This document shows, piece after piece, positions 6,820 through 32,124 of a DNA stretch of 36,739 bases. Origin of the DNA: Desulfovibrionaceae bacterium UBA6814. Lineage in GTDB: Bacteria > Desulfobacterota > Desulfovibrionia > Desulfovibrionales > Desulfovibrionaceae. The notes beneath the pieces were generated by a model. That model saw only the letters and a program-made list of their open reading frames with translations. It searched no databases and had not been told where the DNA came from. The translations under genes were made by a program, and so were the position numbers. The stretch covers positions 1-36,739 of the forward strand of contig DKEU01000237.1 of NCBI GenBank assembly GCA_002452635.1. Direction: 5' to 3'. The stretch's first letter is position 1, and each line of letters opens with the position of its first letter.

Positions 6820-7173
6820 ATGTCCCTGAACGCCCCCGACGTCAAGCCGCCCGACTGCCCGGAATCCGCGGCCATCGGCCAGGTGCAGCTCCTCCTGGCC
6901 GAAAAGCGCACCTCCCTGGCCGCCCTGCGCACCGGCATCGCGGTGTTCGCCCTGCCCCTGTCCGTGCTTGGGCTCCTGGTGGCCACGTCCAAATATTATG
7001 ACGCGGCCGAGGTGCTGCACTTCCTGCTGCCCTTGCTTGCGCTCTCCGCGGCCCTGGCCGCGCTGGGGGCCTGGCTGTGCGTGCGCGCGGCGCTGCGGCT
7101 GCGCCACGAGGACCGGCTCATCCGCCGCATCAAGGCCCGGTGCTCCAGCCTGGCCGAGCTCATCGAGGAGTGA
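6820..7173 (+). CDS. DUF202 (YidH-like) membrane protein
   Basis: ATG 6820 gives 117 aa. LAEKRTSLAALRTGIAVFALPL resembles the DUF202 signature (ANERTFLAWIRT). Two further TM helices follow. Confidence 0.55.
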   Translation: MSLNAPDVKPPDCPESAAIGQVQLLLAEKRTSLAALRTGIAVFALPLSVLGLLVATSKYYDAAEVLHFLLPLLALSAALAALGAWLCVRAALRLRHEDRLIRRIKARCSSLAELIEE

Positions 7174-7176
7174 CCC

Positions 7177-7983
7177 GTGGACTTCGCCTCCCTGTCCCCC
7201 GTGCTCCAGGCCTTCCTGGCCACCTGCTTCACCTGGGGCGTCACCGCCCTGGGCTCGGCCGTGGTGTTCCTGGCCAAGGACGTGTCCCGCAAGGTCCTGG
7301 ACGTGATGCTGGGCTTTGCGGCCGGGGTGATGATCGCGGCCAGCTACTGGTCGCTGCTGGCCCCGGCCATCGAGATGTCCGCGGACCTGGGCAAGTTCGC
7401 CTTCGTGCCCGCCCTGGTGGGCTTCGTGGCCGGCGCGGTGTTCCTGCGCCTGGTGGACCGGTTCCTGCCCCACCTGCACCTCAACGCCCCGCGCAGCGAG
7501 GCCGAGGGCGTGCAGGTGGAGTGGCAGCGCAGCGTGCTGCTGGTGCTGGCCATCACCCTGCACAACATCCCCGAGGGCCTGGCCGTGGGCGTGGCCTTCG
7601 GCGCGGTGGCCGCGGGCCTGCCCTCGGCGGACCTGGCCGGAGCCGTGGCCCTGGCCATCGGCATCGGCATCCAGAACTTCCCCGAGGGCACGGCGGTGTC
7701 CGTGCCCCTGCGCCGCAACGGCATGAGCCGCCTGAAGAGCTTCTGGTACGGCCAGCTCTCGGGCATCGTGGAGCCCATTGCCGGGGTGCTGGGGGCCATG
7801 GCCGTGCTGGTGGCCCGGCCGCTCCTGCCCTACGCCCTGGCCTTCGCCGCCGGGGCCATGATCTTCGTGGTGGTGGAGGAGGTCATCCCCGAGTCCCAGT
7901 CCTCGGGCTACGGCGACCAGGCCACCATGGGCGTGGTCTTCGGCTTCGCGGTGATGATGACCCTGGACGTGGCCCTGGGCTGA
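7177..7983 (+). CDS. ZIP family divalent-metal transporter (ZupT/GufA-like)
   Basis: GTG 7177 is preceded by GAGGAG. The motifs HNIPEGLAVG and QNFPEGTAV are typical of ZIP transporters. The protein has multiple TM helices. Confidence 0.9.
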   Translation: MDFASLSPVLQAFLATCFTWGVTALGSAVVFLAKDVSRKVLDVMLGFAAGVMIAASYWSLLAPAIEMSADLGKFAFVPALVGFVAGAVFLRLVDRFLPHLHLNAPRSEAEGVQVEWQRSVLLVLAITLHNIPEGLAVGVAFGAVAAGLPSADLAGAVALAIGIGIQNFPEGTAVSVPLRRNGMSRLKSFWYGQLSGIVEPIAGVLGAMAVLVARPLLPYALAFAAGAMIFVVVEEVIPESQSSGYGDQATMGVVFGFAVMMTLDVALG

Positions 7984-7988
7984 ACCGC

Positions 7989-9665
7989 GTGCGCCGCCTC
8001 CTCTGCATCCTCCTCCTGGCGGCCCTGGGCGCGGCGGCCCTGCCGGCGCGGGCCGGAATGCCCGAGCCCCGGGACCCGGCGGACCTGGTGGCCGGCCAGT
8101 GGCTCGCGGCCATGAGCCTGGAGGAGAAGGTCGGCCAGCTCTTCATGGTGTTCTTCGAAGGCCCCACCCTCTCCCCCGGGGCCATGGAGCTCCTGGCCCG
8201 CCGCCGCGCGGGCGGCATCTGCCTGTTCTCCCGCACCGGCAACGTATCGGACCCGGCCCAGGTGGCCCGGCTCACGGCCGAGGCCCGGCGCATGGCCTCG
8301 CCCCTGGACCAGGGGCCGGGGCTGTTCGTGGCCGTGGACCAGGAGGGCGGCCCGGTGGCGCGGCTGACGCAAGGATGCACGGTCATGCCCCCGGCCATGC
8401 TCCTGGGGGCCAGCGGCGACCCGGAGAACGCCCGCCGCGCCGCCCGGATAACCGCCGAGGAACTGACCGCCCTGGGCATCAACGTGAACCTGGCCCCGGT
8501 GCTGGACGTGAACCTGAACCCGGCCAACCCGGTCATCGGCGCGCGCTCCTTCGGCGCGGACCCCGAGGCCGTGGCCCGCTTCGGCCTGGCCGCCCTGGAG
8601 GGCTACGAGGACGGCGGGGTCATGCCGGTGGCCAAGCACTTCCCCGGGCACGGGGACACGGCCGTGGACTCCCACGCCGCCCTGCCCACCCTGCCCCACG
8701 CCCGGGACCGGCTGGAGGCGGTGGAGCTTGCGCCCTTCCGCCGGGCCGTGGCCGCGGGCGCGCCCGCAATCATGACCGCGCACCTGGCGGTCCCGGCCCT
8801 GGACCCGTTGGAGCGGCCGGCCACCTTCTCCCCGCCGGTGCTGGGCCTCTTGCGCGAGGCCGGATTCGACGGGCTCCTTTTCACCGACTCCCTGGGCATG
8901 GGCGCGGTGGCCCGCCACATGGACGCCCCCACCGCGGCCCTGGCCGCCTTCTCGGCCGGGGCCGACGTGCTGCTCTTCGGCGCGGACAAGGATTTCGACC
9001 CCCGGGACCAGGACCGGGCCATGGCCCGGGTGCTGGCCGCGGCCCAGGCCGGCGAGATTCCCGCCGCGCGCCTGGACGCCTCGGTGCGCCGCATCCTGCG
9101 GGCCAAGGCCCGCTTCGACATCAAAGGCAGCCGCGGCCCGGACCCCAGGCGGGCCGCAGCGGCCTGCGGCACGGCCGAGCACCGCGCCGCGGCGCAGGGC
9201 CTGGCCGCGGCCGGCCTCACCCTGGTGCGCCCCGCTCCCGGCCTGCTCCCCCTGGCCCCGGACGCGCCGGTGCTGGCCCTGTGGCCGGGCGGCGACCCGG
9301 ACCTGGCCCGGGCGCTCTCCCTGGCCGCCCCGGGAATGCGGGTGCGGCTGCTCGCCGGCGACCCGGACCCGGAGGAGATCGCGGCGGCCGTGGGCGAGGC
9401 CGCGGCCGCGCCGGTGGTGGTGCTGCTCGCCACCCGCGCCGACCGGAGTCCCGGCCAGGAGAAACTGGGCGCGGCCCTGCCCGGAGAAAAGCTGGTGGTG
9501 GTCTCCCTGGCCGAGCCCTACGACCTGGCCCGGTTCCCCCACGCCGCCGGGCTGGTGGCGGCCTACGGCCGCACCCCCTGCGTGCTGGAGGCCCTGGCCG
9601 CGGCGCTATACGGGCTGGGGCCCATGGGCGGGAAGCTGCCCGTGGCCGTGCCCGGCCTGCCCTGA
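7989..9665 (+). CDS. Exported glycoside hydrolase family 3 protein (beta-N-acetylhexosaminidase, NagZ-like, with C-terminal domain)
   Basis: GTG 7989 is in frame with the 7077-9665 ORF. The signal peptide is VRRLLCILLLAALGAAALPARA. GH3 motifs present are VGQLFM, VDQEGGPVARL, GINVNLAPVLDV and KHFPGHGDT. Confidence 0.85.
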   Translation: MRRLLCILLLAALGAAALPARAGMPEPRDPADLVAGQWLAAMSLEEKVGQLFMVFFEGPTLSPGAMELLARRRAGGICLFSRTGNVSDPAQVARLTAEARRMASPLDQGPGLFVAVDQEGGPVARLTQGCTVMPPAMLLGASGDPENARRAARITAEELTALGINVNLAPVLDVNLNPANPVIGARSFGADPEAVARFGLAALEGYEDGGVMPVAKHFPGHGDTAVDSHAALPTLPHARDRLEAVELAPFRRAVAAGAPAIMTAHLAVPALDPLERPATFSPPVLGLLREAGFDGLLFTDSLGMGAVARHMDAPTAALAAFSAGADVLLFGADKDFDPRDQDRAMARVLAAAQAGEIPAARLDASVRRILRAKARFDIKGSRGPDPRRAAAACGTAEHRAAAQGLAAAGLTLVRPAPGLLPLAPDAPVLALWPGGDPDLARALSLAAPGMRVRLLAGDPDPEEIAAAVGEAAAAPVVVLLATRADRSPGQEKLGAALPGEKLVVVSLAEPYDLARFPHAAGLVAAYGRTPCVLEALAAALYGLGPMGGKLPVAVPGLP

Positions 9666-9753
9666 AAATCCCCGCAATGACACGGCGGTTGATTACCCAG
9701 GCCCGAATTGGTAAGTGAGATGGTTCGCGGCACTCCGCGTAAGGATACACCGA

Positions 9754-27358: not shown

Positions 27359-27380
27359 CCGCCCGGCATGCGCCAAGACA

Positions 27381-27407
27381 AAGCGGGGGAGCCGGAAGGC
27401 TCCCCCG
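27381..27407 (+). repeat. Left copy of the 27-nt direct repeat (GC-rich hairpin) bracketing the 1.8-kb insert
   Basis: AAGCGGGGGAGCCGGAAGGCTCCCCCG is identical to 29195-29221. It forms a 10-bp stem (27384-27393 / 27398-27407) with a GGAA loop. It lies 23 nt after the membrane-protein stop codon. Confidence 0.9.
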
Positions 27408-27471: not shown

Positions 27472-28074
27472 ATGGACTACCGGAAGGAACTGGACGAACT
27501 CCTGCGGGTGGAAGACCCCTTGCGGCGCAAGGCCCGCTTCATGGGCATCCTGTCCCGGGAAGTCCTGCGGGAATCGGGCAAGACCCCGGTCATCGTGGGC
27601 GGATTCGCGGTGGAGGTGTTCACGGTCGGGCGCTACACCTCCCTGGACGTGGATGTGAAGGGGCCCAAGGAGAGCATCACCCGCATCCTGGGGGAGATGG
27701 GCTTCCGGCACGACGGCACGCACTTTGTCCACGAGGGCCTGGATATCTTCATCCAATGGCTGGGCGAGGGACCGAGTCCCCTCAGCGAGAGCCTGGAGCG
27801 CCTGGTCAACGTGCCCGTGGACCACGCCGCCGGCCTCTTCATCCGCCTCATCGGCTTCGAGGACCTCATCATCGACCGCCTCAACCAGGCCAAGCACTGG
27901 AAGGTGGCGGACGCCGGGATGTGGGCTGCTCGCATCCTGGAGGCGGCCCTCACCGGCGAGGACGTGTCTCTGGATTTCGACTACCTGAGACAGCGCGCCG
28001 AGGCGGAAGACGTGATGGACGTGCTAGACGACCTGCTCAGTGACGTGAACATCATCCCGGAACCCGGAGCCTGA
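27472..28074 (+). CDS. Minimal nucleotidyltransferase-fold protein (DUF2204/DUF6036/AbiEii-like; family not resolved)
   Basis: ATG 27472 is preceded by GAGG. In the 200-aa product, VIVGGFAVEVFTVGRYTSLDVDVKG approximates the Pol-beta-type NTase signature hG[GS]-x9-13-Dh[DE]h (here 14 residues separate GG from the first Asp). A later acidic segment is IRLIGFEDLIIDRL. Confidence 0.5.
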   Translation: MDYRKELDELLRVEDPLRRKARFMGILSREVLRESGKTPVIVGGFAVEVFTVGRYTSLDVDVKGPKESITRILGEMGFRHDGTHFVHEGLDIFIQWLGEGPSPLSESLERLVNVPVDHAAGLFIRLIGFEDLIIDRLNQAKHWKVADAGMWAARILEAALTGEDVSLDFDYLRQRAEAEDVMDVLDDLLSDVNIIPEPGA

Positions 28075-28076
28075 CC

Positions 28077-28298
28077 ATGCGCACCATCCCCCTGGAAGAC
28101 CTCCTGGCCGCGGGCCGCAAGGCCACGGCAGAAGCCTACCTCGCCGGCCGCATGTCCGAGCGCGCCCGCCTGCGCACCGCCCCCCGCGACCCCGAAAAAC
28201 TCGCCGCCCTGGCCCGCTATGTGAGCGACTACATTCGAAAGCATCCGATCCGCAGGATGGAGAATGGGATGATCTGGGTGCCGGGACTCTCAGAATAA
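28077..28298 (+). CDS. Small hypothetical protein (73 aa) coupled to the NTase-fold gene
   Basis: ATG 28077 lies 2 nt after the upstream TGA. The product looks helical (MRTIPLEDLLAAGRKATAEAYLAGRMSERARL...). I recognise no family. The stop is TAA 28296-28298. Confidence 0.45.
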   Translation: MRTIPLEDLLAAGRKATAEAYLAGRMSERARLRTAPRDPEKLAALARYVSDYIRKHPIRRMENGMIWVPGLSE

Positions 28299-28331
28299 AG
28301 CCATCCGTGACTATATTTCTTGGAGGACAAT

Positions 28332-29177
28332 ATGCCTTACAATGCAACTGTATACAAAGTAATGATTGCTTCTCCAAACGATGTAGCGCATGAAAGATCC
28401 ATCATTAGAGATGTTCTAAATGAGTGGAACACTGTAAACTCTGATTCAAGAAAAATCGTTTTACTTCCAATCGGATGGGAAACGCATACTTCCCCAGAAA
28501 TGGGAGAGAACCCCCAAGAAATAATTAACAAACAAATTGCTAAAGACTGTGACCTTCTTGTCGGGGTGTTTTGGACAAGAATTGGGACGCCAACTCAATC
28601 ATATTTGAGTGGGACTGTAGAAGAGATCGAAGAGCATATAGCAAAAGACAAACCCACAATGTTATATTTCTCTAGTGCTCCCATCCATCCGGATATCGTT
28701 GATCAATCTCAATATAATGAGTTAAAAAAGTTTAAGGAGGCTTGCAGCACACGAGGAATATACGAAACTTATTCCGACTTATCAGAATTCAAGAGTAAAT
28801 TCTATAGACAGCTACAAATCAAACTAAACAAAGATAAATTTTTTACAACTAACAACCAAGGAGAAACTCGCCCTTTTGAACTTGTTGAATCCAAGCCGGT
28901 AGAAATACCACACTTATCAGAAGAAGCTAAAGTATTATTAGTTGAGACAGCAAATGATTCCCATGGACATATTTTACGCTTACACCATTTAGGTGGCGTT
29001 ACGATACAAACTGGAAGCAAGACTTTTGTAAATGACAGTAATCCAAGAAATCGTGCGACATGGGAGGGAGCTATTAAAGAGCTTGAAGAAAATGGACTAA
29101 TCGAACCGCTCAATCCAAAGAGAGAAATATTTCAAATAACACGAAGAGGATATGACATTGCAGAATTACTAGGGTAA
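28332..29177 (+). CDS. AT-rich orphan gene: DUF4062/TIR-like (nucleoside-deoxyribosyltransferase-like) Rossmannoid N-domain fused to a winged-helix-like C-domain
   Basis: GGAGG (28322-28326) plus a 5-nt spacer precedes ATG 28332; the track start TTG 28320 is less likely. The product is 281 aa. The N-domain pattern is YKVMIASPNDVAHER ... DCDLLVGVFWTRIGTPT ... SGTVEEIEEHI ... KPTMLYFS. The C-terminus is ATWEGAIKELEENGLIEPL...FQITRRGYDIAELL. Sampled lines give 25-37% G+C against about 70% in the flanks. An intrinsic terminator follows. Confidence 0.8.
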   Translation: MPYNATVYKVMIASPNDVAHERSIIRDVLNEWNTVNSDSRKIVLLPIGWETHTSPEMGENPQEIINKQIAKDCDLLVGVFWTRIGTPTQSYLSGTVEEIEEHIAKDKPTMLYFSSAPIHPDIVDQSQYNELKKFKEACSTRGIYETYSDLSEFKSKFYRQLQIKLNKDKFFTTNNQGETRPFELVESKPVEIPHLSEEAKVLLVETANDSHGHILRLHHLGGVTIQTGSKTFVNDSNPRNRATWEGAIKELEENGLIEPLNPKREIFQITRRGYDIAELLG

Positions 29178-29194
29178 GATAAGAAAGCAAAACC

Positions 29195-29221
29195 AAGCGG
29201 GGGAGCCGGAAGGCTCCCCCG
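29195..29221 (+). repeat. Right copy of the 27-nt direct repeat
   Basis: AAGCGGGGGAGCCGGAAGGCTCCCCCG is identical to 27381-27407. Confidence 0.9.
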
Positions 29222-29229
29222 CTCTTTTT
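29197..29229. terminator. Bidirectional intrinsic terminator between the AT-rich gene (+) and cheA (-)
   Basis: GCGGGGGAGCC (29197-29207) and GGCTCCCCCGC (29212-29222) form an 11-bp stem with a GGAA loop. It is followed by TCTTTTT and preceded by an A-rich tract (AAGAAAGCAAAACCAA), which supplies a U-tract on the minus strand. Confidence 0.8.
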
Positions 29230-29247
29230 GTCTCGTTGCCCCGGGGC

Positions 29248-32025
29248 CTACGCCCGGGTGGTGGCCATCTTGTAGACCTCGTGGGGGTCGAGGATGAGGA
29301 CCACCGAGCCGTCGCCCATGATGGTGGCGCCGGACAGGCCGCGGCAGTCGCCCAGGTAGGAGCCCAGGGGCTTGATCACGATCTCCTGGCGCTCCAGCAG
29401 GCGGTCCACCACCAGGCCCAGGCGGCGCTGGTTGTCCTGGATCACCACCACCGGCAATATCTCCCGCTCGGTCTGGTTGCGGGGCAGCTCCAGAAGCTCG
29501 GCCAGCTCCACGATGCCCAGCACCTCGCCGCGCAGGGTCACGGCGTTGCGGCCGTTGACCTCGGTGAGCAGGTCCGCCTCGATCTTGGTGGTCTCGGACA
29601 CCGCGTCCAGGGGGATGGCGTACATCTGCTCGTCCACCATGATCATGAGCGCGTCGATGATGGCCAGGGTGAGCGGCAGGGACAGGATGAACTTGGTGCC
29701 CTTGCCCAGGTGGGTCTGCACGTCCACCGTGCCCTTGAGGTTCTTGATGTTGGTGCGCACCACGTCCATGCCCACGCCGCGGCCCGAGATGTCGGTGATC
29801 TTCTCCGCGGCGGAGAAGCCCGGGGCGAAGATGAGGTCCACGGCCGCGGCGTCGTCCAGGGCGTTGGCCTCCTCCTGGGTGACGATGCCCTTCTTGACGC
29901 CCACCTCGCGCATCTTCCTGGGGTCGATGCCCCGGCCGTCGTCCTCCACCTCGATGGCCACCGAGTTGCCGCGGTGGTAGGCGCGCAGCCACACCCGGCC
30001 CACCTCGGGCTTGCCCGCGGCCACCCGCTCGTCGTTGGGCTCCAGGCCGTGGTCCATGGAGTTGCGCATGAGGTGGACCAGGGGGTCGCCGATGACCTCG
30101 ATGACGCTCTTGTCCAGCTCGGTCTCCTCGCCCTCGGTGATGAGCTCCACCTTCTTGCCGCTCTTGCGGGACAGGTCGCGCACCAGGCGGGGGAAGCGGG
30201 TGAACACCGTGGACACCGGCACCATGCGCACCTTCATGATGGTGTCCTGCAGGTCGTCGGAGATGCGGGCCATGGCGTAGGTGGTCTCGGTGAGGTCCGT
30301 GGCGGTGCGCGCCAGGTCCATCTTTTCCGTGCGCTCCTCCATGCTCTTGGCGATCATGGAGAAACGGTTGCGGTTGATGATGAGCTCGCCGATGAGGTTC
30401 ATGAGGTGGTCGAGCTTCTCGTGGTCCACCCGGATGGTGGACGAGGTGGCGGCGGGTTTGCCCTTCTTGGCCGCGGCTCCCGCGGCGGGCGCGGCGGCCC
30501 GGCCGGGCCTGGCCGCCGGGGCGTCCTCCTCGGCGGACTCGGTGGGCTCGGCGGGCTCGGGCTCCTCGGCCGGCTCGGGCTCGGGCTCGGGAGCCGGGGC
30601 CGCCGGGGCGGGCGCAGGGGCAGGCTTGGGAGCAGGAGCGGGAGCCGGGGCAGGAGCCGCGGCCGGAGCCGGTGCGGCGGCCGCCTGGCTGATCTGCCGC
30701 TCCACCATGTCCTTGAGGATGGAGCACTCCTGCTTGAGGATGTCGAGCATGAGCTCGAAGTCCAGGTCCGACTTGCGGGCCTGGTCCACCAGGCCGGCGG
30801 TGCGCTCGGCCGTGGTCTTGATCTCGGCGAAGCCCATGTACTGGGCGGAATTCTGGATGCCCACCAGGGAGCGGAACAGGCCGTCCACGTAGTCGCGCTG
30901 CCCGGCGTCCCTGGCCAGCTCGGCCAGGGCCAGGTCGATGTTGGCGAGCTGTTGGCCCACGGTGGACTCGAACACCGCCAGGTCGTCGTCGTCCACGCCC
31001 CCGGCCCCGGCCGGGGACTCGGCCGCGGGAGCCGCAGCCGCGGCGGGCTCGGGTTCGGGGGCCGGGACGGGCTCTTCGCCCGCGGCCTGCAGCCGGGCCA
31101 CCACCGCGCGGGTGTCCACCGGGGTCACCTCGTGCTTCTCCCGGTCCACGCCCTCCAGCAGGCCCGCGATGCCGTCCACCGCGGCCAGGAGCACGTCGGT
31201 GAGGCCCTGGGTGGCGGCGATCTCGCCCTTGCGCACCCGGTTGAGCAGTGTCTCGGCCTCGTGGGTCAGGGAGTTGAGCTCCGCATAGCCCACGATGCCG
31301 CTGTTGCCCTTCAGGTTGTGGAAATAGCGGAAGATGTCGTTGACCAGCCCCTCCCGGCCCGGGTCCTTCTCCATGTCCACCAGGGCCGCGGACAGGGACT
31401 CCACGATCTCCTTGGCCTCGTCCAGGAAGTCGTCCAGGTGCTCCTTGGCCACCACCTGCAAGCCGTAGGTGGTGGGGGTGAAGGGCGGCAGGCTGGCCGC
31501 CGGGGCAGCGGGAGCCGGGGCAGCGGGAGTCGGGGCGGGCGCGGGGGCCGGGGCCGGCGCGGGGGCCGGGGCCGGGGCCGCCGGGGCGGGCTTGGGTTTG
31601 GGCTTGGGCTTGGCCGCGGCGGGCGGGGTGCCGCCGGCCAGCAGCGCGTCCAGGGTGGCGATGAGGGACGCGGTGTCCACCTCGCCTTCGCTGCCCTCGG
31701 TTTCCAGGTTCTCGATCATCTGGCGCAGGGCGTCGGTGGAGGACAGGATCACGTCCATGATCTCGGAGGTGACCGCCATGTTGCCCTTGCGCAGTTCGTC
31801 CAGGATGTTCTCCGAGCGGTGGGCCAGGACGTTCATCTTGTTCAGGCCGAGAAAGCCCGAAGCTCCCTTCAGGGAGTGCATGGGCCGGAAGATGTCGTTC
31901 AGGAGATCGAGGTTCTCCGGGCTCTGCTCCAGTTCGAGCAGGTTGGGCTCGATGGTCTCCAGATGTTCCTTGGCTTCGACGATGAAGTCGGCGAAGATTT
32001 CCGGATCCATGAACTCTTGGCTCAT
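29248..32025 (-). CDS. cheA: Chemotaxis histidine kinase CheA with three Hpt-like modules
   Basis: ATG 32025 is preceded by GAGG plus a 7-nt spacer; the track start GTG 32031 is less likely. Residue numbers below follow the track numbering. The modules are:
- Hpt1: FRPMHSLKGASG
- Hpt2: FRYFHNLKGNSG
- degenerate Hpt3: FRSLVGIQNSAQ
- dimerisation segment: STIRVDHEKLDHLMNLIGEL
- HATPase boxes: HLMRNSMDHG, DDGRGID, GRGVGMDVV
- C-terminal CheW-like domain. Confidence 0.9.
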   Translation of the reverse strand: MSQEFMDPEIFADFIVEAKEHLETIEPNLLELEQSPENLDLLNDIFRPMHSLKGASGFLGLNKMNVLAHRSENILDELRKGNMAVTSEIMDVILSSTDALRQMIENLETEGSEGEVDTASLIATLDALLAGGTPPAAAKPKPKPKPAPAAPAPAPAPAPAPAPAPTPAAPAPAAPAASLPPFTPTTYGLQVVAKEHLDDFLDEAKEIVESLSAALVDMEKDPGREGLVNDIFRYFHNLKGNSGIVGYAELNSLTHEAETLLNRVRKGEIAATQGLTDVLLAAVDGIAGLLEGVDREKHEVTPVDTRAVVARLQAAGEEPVPAPEPEPAAAAAPAAESPAGAGGVDDDDLAVFESTVGQQLANIDLALAELARDAGQRDYVDGLFRSLVGIQNSAQYMGFAEIKTTAERTAGLVDQARKSDLDFELMLDILKQECSILKDMVERQISQAAAAPAPAAAPAPAPAPAPKPAPAPAPAAPAPEPEPEPAEEPEPAEPTESAEEDAPAARPGRAAAPAAGAAAKKGKPAATSSTIRVDHEKLDHLMNLIGELIINRNRFSMIAKSMEERTEKMDLARTATDLTETTYAMARISDDLQDTIMKVRMVPVSTVFTRFPRLVRDLSRKSGKKVELITEGEETELDKSVIEVIGDPLVHLMRNSMDHGLEPNDERVAAGKPEVGRVWLRAYHRGNSVAIEVEDDGRGIDPRKMREVGVKKGIVTQEEANALDDAAAVDLIFAPGFSAAEKITDISGRGVGMDVVRTNIKNLKGTVDVQTHLGKGTKFILSLPLTLAIIDALMIMVDEQMYAIPLDAVSETTKIEADLLTEVNGRNAVTLRGEVLGIVELAELLELPRNQTEREILPVVVIQDNQRRLGLVVDRLLERQEIVIKPLGSYLGDCRGLSGATIMGDGSVVLILDPHEVYKMATTRA
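30442..30687 (-). repeat. Low-complexity Pro/Ala/Glu-codon tract (CheA inter-domain linker)
   Basis: It encodes AAAPAPAAAPAPAPAPAPKPAPAPAPAAPAPEPEPEPAEEPEPAEP.... Degenerate short GC-rich codon repeats here generate spurious ORFs in other frames. Confidence 0.7.
31474..31632 (-). repeat. Low-complexity Pro/Ala/Lys-codon tract (CheA linker between Hpt1 and Hpt2)
   Basis: It encodes GGTPPAAAKPKPKPKPAPAAPAPAPAPAPAPAPAPTPAAPAPAAPAAS. Confidence 0.7.
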
Positions 32026-32124
32026 TGACACACCTCAGGGCGCGGGCAGTCCCGACGCCGGCTAGCGCAGTTTGCCTTGAAACAAGGCGCAGAGCTAAAA
32101 TACTATTCTGTTATTTCAGCAAAC

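Follow-up and report, generated by a model that had tools for sequence, protein, structure and literature searches.

The window analysed here, a 36,739-nucleotide stretch of Desulfovibrionaceae bacterium UBA6814 DNA (contig DKEU01000237.1, positions 1 to 36,739), carries a strongly AT-rich gene for a protein of 281 amino acids, in which an N-terminal DUF4062 domain is followed by an acidic linker and a C-terminal winged-helix-like domain. We consider it likely that this gene is a single-protein abortive-infection system, in which the winged-helix domain would act as the sensor of a phage product and would drive assembly of the DUF4062 part into an NADase, an enzyme depleting nicotinamide adenine dinucleotide (NAD+). 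Namely, we infer the NADase chemistry, the abortive outcome and the sensor-driven clustering from homology and from three bioRxiv preprints of 2026 that treat DUF4062, by Osinski et al. (10.64898/2026.05.01.722283), Ibarra-Chavez et al. (10.64898/2026.06.25.731849) and Le Mouellic et al. (10.64898/2026.09.04.749371), which between them describe glutamate-dependent phage protection, NAD+ depletion and abortive infection for KpSwz, PsAvs2, Vulcan, VstA and Eva01. In the mechanism that we propose, residues 1-168 would form a TIR-like, nucleoside-2-deoxyribosyltransferase-like NAD+ glycohydrolase with E98 as the predicted catalytic residue, inactive in the uninfected cell and probably present there as a dimer or a small oligomer. 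Residues 197-281, held on the flexible acidic linker, would bind a trigger coming from the phage, for which a multimeric phage protein is a better candidate than DNA; this binding would cluster or re-orient the N-terminal domains so that composite active sites form, and the assembled DUF4062 NADase would then deplete NAD+ and bring about abortive infection. The parts of the gene, with the evidence that defines each, are as follows.

28332-29177, + strand: coding sequence of the DUF4062 (NIR) plus winged-helix protein, 281 residues, TAA stop (29175-29177) included; from the list of open reading frames and the sequence.
28332-28835, + strand: DUF4062 / NIR TIR-like effector domain, residues 1-168; from Pfam PF13271, PDC-S60, the structural model and Foldseek.
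28608-28625, + strand: active-site motif S93-G-T-V-E97-E98, with predicted catalytic glutamate E98 and E97 adjacent to it; from the family alignment and the register with Eva01.
28836-28919, + strand: acidic, variable interdomain linker, residues 169-196, predicted to be disordered; from low model confidence and low identity.
28920-29174, + strand: C-terminal winged-helix-like domain, residues 197-281, the presumed sensor (AUX); from the structural model, Foldseek and fusion partners.

A first-pass annotation, made by a model from the letters and a list of open reading frames, had associated the N-terminal part with DUF4062 and TIR-like folds, and this assignment holds in profile, model and structure searches alike. 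Pfam PF13271 recognises residues 9-100 above its gathering score (29.3 bits against 24.7; expectation value, E, 9.7e-7), the Pfam model itself spanning only about half of the true domain according to the supplement of Osinski et al. The PADLOC candidate profile PDC-S60 matches residues 7-166 (E 1.1e-33), covering positions 4-168 of its 906 only. Membership of the whole protein in PDC-S60, a name that a full-text literature search did not find, is ruled out, the shared part being the N-terminal effector domain only (168/906 profile positions). Neither NCBIfam nor PHROGs returned a match for the 281-residue protein. As for the canonical TIR families (PF01582 / PF13676), Pfam gave no TIR-family match at E <=1, and the relation of the domain to TIR is one of fold or superfamily only.

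The fold itself comes from an AlphaFold2 (AF2) model built on a family alignment of 53 sequences, with a mean predicted local distance difference test (pLDDT) of 81.3. Residues 6-167 alternate between strand and helix (b-a-b-a-b-a-b-a-b-a), in agreement with a five-stranded parallel sheet flanked by helices, with five strands (6-13, 42-47, 75-80, 109-114, 144-147), five helices and a low-confidence loop, residues 48-60, at the position of the TIR BB-loop. When the N-domain was compared by Foldseek with predicted viral structures, the best matches were nucleoside 2-deoxyribosyltransferases (E 7e-6 to 7e-4, target template modelling score, TM, up to 0.56), accompanied by a CMP/hmCMP hydrolase and a protein annotated as dUTPase, while the full model compared with the PDB found the plant TIR domains L7/L6 at E ~1e-3, on ranks 24 and 35. 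PDB chains searched with the complete sequence and with profiles of the family and of the C-domain gave nothing meaningful, and there was no DUF4062 structure among them. Le Mouellic et al. report the same nearest-structure profile for DUF4062.

A number of residues never change across the 53 aligned sequences. In the N-domain these include S14, P15, D17, E21, W49, H52, Q62, N66 and D74, together with F80-W81-T82-R83, G85, S93, G94, E97, E98 and H102. The motif S82-Y-T-E-M-E87 of Eva01 aligns with S93-G-T-V-E97-E98, placed by the model at a helix spanning residues 94-104, and E98 is the predicted catalytic residue because it is aligned with Eva01 E87. The SGTVEE motif, whose acidic residues the first-pass annotation had singled out for mutation, is in this sense the right one, as it holds the predicted catalytic glutamate. 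By analogy with KpSwz, TEP1, PsAvs2, Vulcan and Vesta, the N-domain would be an NAD+ glycohydrolase.

Would the chemistry necessarily be that of NAD+ depletion? A defence or conflict effector that hydrolyses or transfers another nucleotide or nucleoside, or that makes a signalling nucleotide, is an alternative which we regard as quite unlikely. It can draw on the nearest structures listed above (deoxyribosyltransferases, the annotated dUTPase and the CMP/hmCMP hydrolase), on the first annotation of the PsAvs2 DUF4062 domain as a CMP hydrolase (10.64898/2026.09.04.749371), on the perturbation of several adenine and guanine metabolites upon activation of Eva01, for which the authors claim no direct enzymology (10.64898/2026.06.25.731849), and on the statement of Osinski et al. 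that DUF4062 mechanisms may exceed NADase activity. Against this, all active DUF4062 proteins that have been assayed deplete NAD+ (KpSwz and TEP1 in vitro; PsAvs2, Vulcan and Vesta in vivo), the NARP1 pathway rescues from depletion of NAD+ of the PsAvs2/Vulcan/Vesta type, and the context of the catalytic glutamate is conserved in the window protein.

The preference for NADase chemistry gains from what has been described of related systems, and the same descriptions correct the first-pass annotation, which had called the gene undescribed and had placed its two-domain architecture in no named system. Namely, a single polypeptide with DUF4062 and a C-terminal sensor is the architecture of both Swarozyc and Evangelion, and the window protein belongs to this already described architectural class rather than to an undescribed system. 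Osinski et al. present DUF4062 as a TIR-like NADase; in their KpSwz (Swarozyc of Klebsiella pneumoniae), DUF4062 with catalytic E97, a helical stalk and an HTH/winged AUX share one polypeptide, and binding of the phage portal by AUX leads to NAD+ hydrolysis and abortive infection. Ibarra-Chavez et al. define Evangelion as a single gene with a DUF4062 core and a diversified AUX; in Eva01, F11, E87, W162 and AUX are essential and E87A abolishes defence, infection lowers NAD+, and escaper mutations fall in phage recombination genes. Le Mouellic et al., who rename DUF4062 as NIR, show glutamate-dependent NAD+ depletion by an Avs2 protein, Vulcan and Vesta, and find NIR genes near defence systems in 20.0% of cases, against a chance expectation of 3.9%. 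Mutation of the catalytic glutamate abolishes defence in KpSwz, PsAvs2, Vulcan and VstA (10.64898/2026.05.01.722283; 10.64898/2026.09.04.749371).

By published description, KpSwz is, like the window protein, a single polypeptide with an N-terminal DUF4062 domain, in KpSwz a NADase whose catalytic glutamate lies near residue 97. Its AUX of about 90 amino acids is an HTH/winged domain with a beta-hairpin and is needed for defence; the winged-helix-like C-domain of the window protein may be its counterpart, and the two proteins agree in the order and sizes of their parts. KpSwz, too, spreads horizontally and is found in islands. The two differ in that KpSwz D16, R18, D71, W176 and W238/Y239 are not co-linear with the window family, and in that the tip of the hairpin reads L-G-G in the window protein and W-Y in KpSwz. 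Among the accessions listed for the clusters of E. coli homologues, UPI0002A39D72 (EcSwz) does not occur. The lineage is in this way only partly placed, the comparison with Swarozyc resting on its published description rather than on a sequence alignment with KpSwz (WP_202404386).

Eva01 (WP_000072390.1, 324 residues, from S. aureus pMW2) can be aligned directly: over a core of about 160 residues it is 26% identical to the window protein (BLASTP E 0.048, hhalign E 0.006; residues 1-162 against Eva01 1-149), and the core motifs correspond, namely D17/D18, E21-R22/E22-R23, Q62/Q50 and S-x-T-x-x-E with E98/E87 (window/Eva01). Eva01 F11 is replaced by M11, and around the BB-loop the window family is longer by about 10 residues (GWETHTSPEMG). 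What is more, nothing in the AUX of Eva01 (about residues 177-324, including F212) aligns with the C-terminal region of the window protein by BLASTP or hhalign, and Eva01 binds recombination-like DNA, whereas the C-domain of the window protein is acidic. By its AUX the window protein is outside the Eva01 lineage, yet it fits the broad definition of Evangelion as a DUF4062 core with a diversified AUX. A screen of plasmids for Evangelion assigned 1.1% of 447 plasmids, about 5, to Synechococcus (10.64898/2026.06.25.731849); a full-length homologue, 50% identical to the window protein, is present in five records of S. elongatus pANL, and as the numbers match, these may be the same plasmids.

The remaining systems share the effector and differ in what is attached to it. 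The NIR systems have the same effector family, with the catalytic glutamate at E98 in Vulcan, E103 in VstA and E108 in PsAvs2, and act by NAD+ depletion and abortive infection. Vulcan ends in HEAT repeats, in contrast to the 92-residue alpha/beta winged-helix-like C-terminus of the window protein, which has no HEAT match; Vesta (VstA/VstB) is a two-gene operon with an alkaline phosphatase, and no phosphatase neighbour lies beside the gene in the window or at any homologue locus examined; Avs2 proteins with NIR have STAND and TPR modules, which occur neither in the window protein nor beside 12 of its homologues. Identity with Vesta, Vulcan or PDC-S60 is ruled out by architecture. SpbK (PMC12847820) is similar in combining an NADase domain, a flexible linker and a small sensor, and in clustering on a multimeric phage protein; its sensor is an N-terminal four-helix bundle and its effector a C-terminal canonical TIR, whereas the window protein has the reverse order, a DUF4062 effector and a winged-helix-like sensor.

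The second half of the protein is where the first-pass annotation had seen a winged helix, and this is borne out qualitatively. Between the two domains, the linker has pLDDT below 50 at residues 176-179 and 184-189, a median isoelectric point (pI) of 4.3 and a length that varies within the family; family members are 23% identical to the window protein in the linker, 70% in the N-domain and 49% in the C-domain. When residues 190-281 (92 amino acids) are modelled by AF2 alone, the confidence is high (pLDDT 94.5, predicted TM 0.86), and the topology reads helix, three strands, long helix, beta-hairpin wing, helix. The top Foldseek matches, none of them significant, are nearly all winged-helix proteins (MarR family, eukaryotic ribosomal winged-helix, SSV1 F-93, ETS, MukE/F), and homologous C-domains elsewhere match the Pfam winged-helix families HTH_45, MksE, EarA, Mrr_N and GMT-wHTH. 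A242, W244, L251, T270 and G273 are invariant in the C-domains of the 53 sequences. With a median pI of 5.7 and a net charge of -2, the domain is mildly acidic, which weakly favours a protein or ligand trigger over DNA.

A winged helix naturally brings to mind a housekeeping or regulatory protein, that is, a transcription factor unconnected with conflict, which would bind DNA through its winged helix and sense a nucleotide ligand through its Rossmann-like N-domain. The weak MarR-like and Mrr_N-like character of the C-domain and the position of several homologues among housekeeping genes could be read this way. That said, such an acidic C-domain is unlike a typical DNA-binding winged helix-turn-helix, the family has a patchy distribution across phyla and domains at 55-67% identity, with an AT shift, the invariant pair of catalytic-type glutamates is kept, no conserved target operon is seen, and the C-domain is fused to TIR, SEFIR, PNP and CHAT effectors. 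We regard a regulator as very improbable.

These fusions are the strongest new evidence for the sensor role of the C-domain. A search with residues 190-281 against 1.84 billion cluster representatives (50% identity) returned 1,286 representatives at E <=1e-3, 307 of them at <=1e-10, in proteins from 67 to >500 amino acids long, two or three tandem copies being frequent. Fusion partners were read by Pfam and PADLOC from 91 of the 1,286. Pfam identifies TIR_2 (15 proteins), DUF4062 (12), TIR (4), ThsB_TIR (3) and CAP12/Pycsar TIR (3), as well as SEFIR, PNP_UDP_1, CHAT and ThsA_Macro; PADLOC identifies the PDC-S60-type N-domain (34), TIR-TM (7) and SpbK-like TIR (4), and also recognised ThsB, bSEFIR, ThsA and PDC-S35/S66. 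In ten examples with coordinates, the effector is N-terminal and the C-domain C-terminal. One domain is swapped in this way among NAD+- or nucleotide-targeting and protease effectors, as happens in modular immune proteins, and for this reason we read it as a sensor. The SpbK-like TIR matches were rejected as a sign of a shared portal sensor, the SpbK sensor being the N-terminal four-helix bundle, and one protein of 1,126 residues with 12 apparent C-domain stretches (P0229) was set aside, as it looks like a low-complexity artefact.

DUF4062 proteins of 370-490 residues (P0121, P0124, P0132, P0151 and others) have two or three tandem C-domains; such tandem arrangements hint that a repetitive or multimeric target is recognised in a multivalent manner. 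Since the domain is unusually conserved across bacteria and archaea, it may recognise a conserved phage feature.

The first-pass annotation had also described the gene as an orphan, which it is not. Homologues number 2,853 at E <=1e-3 in a protein database search, and the best 120 of these are nearly all full-length (most of them 270-300 residues) at 55-67% identity, with Lentisphaerae, Burkholderia multivorans, Paraburkholderia and Pseudomonadota metagenome-assembled genomes (MAGs) among the named sources. A scan of genome contigs gave a single locus, a full-length homologue with 59% identity in a Methanotrichaceae archaeal MAG (L001 8001-8837), which implies either that the gene has crossed between bacteria and archaea or that the contig is mis-binned. 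In E. coli, full-length homologues are present in 390 of 5,426 complete genomes, WP_054627070.1 being 53% identical and WP_000331917.1 (in Nissle 1917 among others) 45%; further homologues occur in Klebsiella grimontii, Raoultella and Serratia, on Synechococcus elongatus pANL (50%) and on a Caulobacter plasmid (42%). The mean column identity of the 53-sequence family alignment is 66%.

Across 12 homologue contexts there is no conserved neighbour or partner gene. An AT shift relative to the flanks is present in 11 of the 12 loci (0.05-0.32), the window locus having the largest. PADLOC finds defence genes within a few kilobases in four of the loci examined:

B. multivorans locus, near the DUF4062 homologue: AriA/AriB (PARIS).
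Paraburkholderia locus, near the DUF4062 homologue: NsnA.
E. coli 05-3629 locus, near the DUF4062 homologue: NsnB/HEC-03B.
E. coli Nissle 1917 locus, near the DUF4062 homologue: PDC-S32.

Mobile-element neighbours of the homologues include resolvases, a tRNA-Leu island with an integrase, a MobQ/RepL element, Y1 transposases and plasmids. The defence module that the first-pass annotation had proposed fits this patchy distribution, with the AT shift, with the defence and mobile neighbours and with the fusion partners of the C-domain.

Several of these loci have features of their own. A serine recombinase or resolvase lies directly upstream on the same strand in Nissle 1917 (L003 7427-8846, with a 14-nucleotide gap) and in Paraburkholderia (L004 9029-10843), and recombinase fragments cluster with the E. 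coli DUF4062 protein in the protein collection, suggesting fused gene calls; recombinase and DUF4062 homologue may form a recombinase-linked mobile unit. On pANL (L051 507-1992), a gene for a small HEAT-repeat protein precedes the full-length homologue and a BrnT/BrnA toxin-antitoxin pair follows it, HEAT repeats being also the sensor of the NIR system Vulcan. On 'plasmid 2' of Salmonella Senftenberg NCTC10384 (L049 6001-6573), the homologue comes right after the terminase large-subunit gene of the packaging module of a prophage, with 48% identity in the N-domain; as IS3 cuts it off after about 190 residues, it is unusable for comparison of the C-domain.

Back in the window, the gene stands out by composition as the first-pass annotation had said, its guanine-plus-cytosine (G+C) content being 0.376 against 0.705 for the whole window. 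The convergent cheA (29248-32031, - strand) has 0.696 and the two genes upstream 0.65-0.67, and the composition falls precisely at the stop codon of the upstream 73-residue gene. Counts of G+C per 60 nucleotides are 22 for 28381-28440, 16 for 28801-28860 and 43 for 29281-29340; the earlier hand counts were exact for the first and the last and one short for the middle one, given as 15. The peptide motifs quoted earlier all occur in the 281-residue protein.

The AT-rich gene is part of a small insert, whose elements and signals are as follows.

27374-27407, + strand: hairpin, left copy; terminates the upstream membrane-protein gene and forms the left edge of the 1.8-kb insert.
27472-28074, + strand: cargo gene 1, G+C-rich, a 200-residue DUF6036-like nucleotidyltransferase; weak DUF6036/DUF2204 similarity (DUF6036 E 0.051), phrog_13263 at E 7e-5.
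28077-28298, + strand: cargo gene 2, G+C-rich, a 73-residue protein without a match; starts 2 nucleotides past the stop of cargo gene 1.
28322-28326, + strand: Shine-Dalgarno GGAGG, 5 nucleotides before ATG 28332; direct reading of the sequence.
29188-29233, + strand: hairpin, right copy; intrinsic terminator for the DUF4062 gene and, on the opposite strand, for the convergent cheA.

That the insert is bracketed by direct repeats, as had been proposed, is correct: 27374-27407 and 29188-29221 are 34-nucleotide copies, 94% identical and 1814 nucleotides apart, with a 25-nucleotide hairpin core that is the same in both and occurs nowhere else in the window; two matches arose in 0 of 100 shuffles. 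The repeats enclose three genes (27472-28074, 28077-28298 and 28332-29177), not the AT-rich gene alone. The two upstream cargo genes may be a toxin-antitoxin-like pair. They were found at none of the other DUF4062 homologue loci examined, and they are therefore not conserved partners of the DUF4062 gene.

For a comparison of the site across related genomes, metagenome contigs were scanned for the hairpin and then compared by blastn with the flanks of the window. In one contig (L031, 1742-9760), the left flank is 76% identical and stops exactly at the hairpin, at window position 27407, and the right flank picks up at window position 29216 with 94% identity, about 8 kb of unrelated cargo lying between the flanks. 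This cargo includes a second copy of the hairpin and an AT-rich block (25-30% G+C) holding a 395-residue open reading frame (7131-8318, + strand), which has no Pfam or PADLOC match, and further on a DUF4760 protein (9076-9684, + strand; E 4e-16); both are possible further unannotated conflict genes. A 700-kb contig (L043 5526-6933, L042 1-152) has both flanks at 86-92% identity, with hairpins 4.9 kb apart and other cargo. Three related genomes, in other words, hold 1.8, 4.9 and about 8 kb of unrelated cargo at one intergenic site, with the membrane-protein gene on one side and the convergent cheA on the other, the hairpin being duplicated in all; in the window as in the 8-kb case, the most AT-rich gene of the cargo lies toward the end nearer to cheA. 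Pfam and PADLOC annotate almost nothing in the cargo of the related genomes, DUF4760 only, and the insert itself contains no integrase. Flanking direct repeats at six further homologue loci are absent or short and probably chance matches. As the related genomes share the hairpin duplication and these six loci are without comparable repeats, the duplication belongs to the site and not to the gene, and a cassette signature carried by the gene itself is rejected. In our reading, the DUF4062 gene is a recent acquisition by horizontal transfer from a source of lower G+C and occupies the end of the small cargo insert that is nearer to cheA. Next to it, the CheA protein (29248-32031, - strand) has several long Ala/Pro-rich low-complexity linkers (PAPAPAPA runs), which give rise to long spurious open reading frames on the opposite strand.

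As to expression, the first-pass annotation had credited the gene with signals of its own, and this is true in part. The TATATT hexamer (28312-28317), GGAGG and ATG 28332 are where they were said to be, and the terminator is strong: a terminator scan finds a hairpin at 29196-29223 after the stop codon, with 12 pairs (10 of them G-C) and then CTTTTTGT, and it scores as a terminator on both strands (12-13 pairs and a T-run), serving cheA as well. An independent promoter does not follow from this. Namely, only 4 nucleotides separate the end of TATATT from the Shine-Dalgarno, so that initiation there would place the 5' end of the transcript within GGAGG or past it; a sigma-70 scan upstream of the DUF4062 gene found no promoter-like site on the + strand, and just 33 nucleotides, with no terminator among them, separate the DUF4062 gene from its upstream neighbour. 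Co-transcription of the DUF4062 gene with the upstream pair is as likely.

The signs of mobility could be taken to mean that the gene is mainly a toxin of addiction or stabilisation, which would punish the cell for losing the element, a selfish mobile cargo or a hitch-hiker, perhaps silent in this host. Homologues adjoin serine recombinases or resolvases in E. coli Nissle and Paraburkholderia, BrnT/BrnA neighbours are found on pANL and Y1 transposases elsewhere, the promoter scan of the window was empty, and a G+C mismatch as extreme as -0.32 would suit a gene that arrived very recently. We nonetheless judge this decidedly unlikely: no antitoxin-like partner and no conserved neighbour accompany the gene at the homologue loci examined, purifying selection is strong across phyla in both domains, the partners of the C-domain are typical immune effectors and not toxins of toxin-antitoxin systems, and characterised single-gene DUF4062 systems are non-toxic until phage proteins trigger them.

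Some observations do weigh against a phage-triggered NADase, and it should be noted what they are. NADase activity is not universal in DUF4062, the human proteins NWD1, NWD2 and NPHP3 being inactive in vitro (10.64898/2026.05.01.722283), and the structural matches of the N-domain are generic, with Ras and flavodoxin folds outranking TIR in the PDB search at TM 0.3-0.55. Between its domains, KpSwz forms a helical stalk (alphaF) together with an intertwined beta-sheet, in contrast to the low-confidence coil of residues 169-196 in our monomer model, in which a stalk forming only in the oligomer would escape detection. The C-domain has no significant Foldseek match (best E 0.096, TM up to 0.58), and at 49% identity across the family it is unusually conserved for a sensor engaged in an arms race. 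No recognisable defence neighbours lie at the window locus. The first-pass annotation had asked whether homologues sit in defence islands or in conserved housekeeping neighbourhoods, and both kinds of context occur: besides the four loci with defence genes and those with mobile neighbours, about half of the contexts are plain housekeeping neighbourhoods, some of them clean single-gene insertions. As the sigma-70 scan found no independent promoter, expression of the gene in this host is no more than putative, and our literature search found no experimental study of this lineage.

If the gene is nevertheless a single-protein abortive-infection system, the DUF4062/NIR immune effectors gain a large, tightly conserved lineage of about 280 residues that crosses domains and is common in E. 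coli and other Enterobacterales, and for which, as for its sensor, we found no characterisation in the literature. What is more, a reading of the sequence only, guided by composition and motifs, would then have correctly singled out the gene of a DUF4062 defence NADase in a genome of high G+C. The locus itself provides a natural, clean case of a small hotspot between genes, flanked by convergent terminators, in which the cargo can be exchanged. A bolder reading, which we find possible and somewhat doubtful, is that the C-domain is a widespread, unnamed immune sensor module and, separately, that the hairpin-bounded site is a hotspot accumulating cassettes; the authors of Evangelion describe AUX regions as being without recognisable conserved domains (10.64898/2026.06.25.731849). 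If this were true, the C-domain family together with its trigger would amount to a new shared class of sensors, beyond another member of DUF4062. Namely, the domain is common to TIR, SEFIR, PNP and CHAT effectors, and finding one trigger would explain the activation of many unrelated-looking systems.

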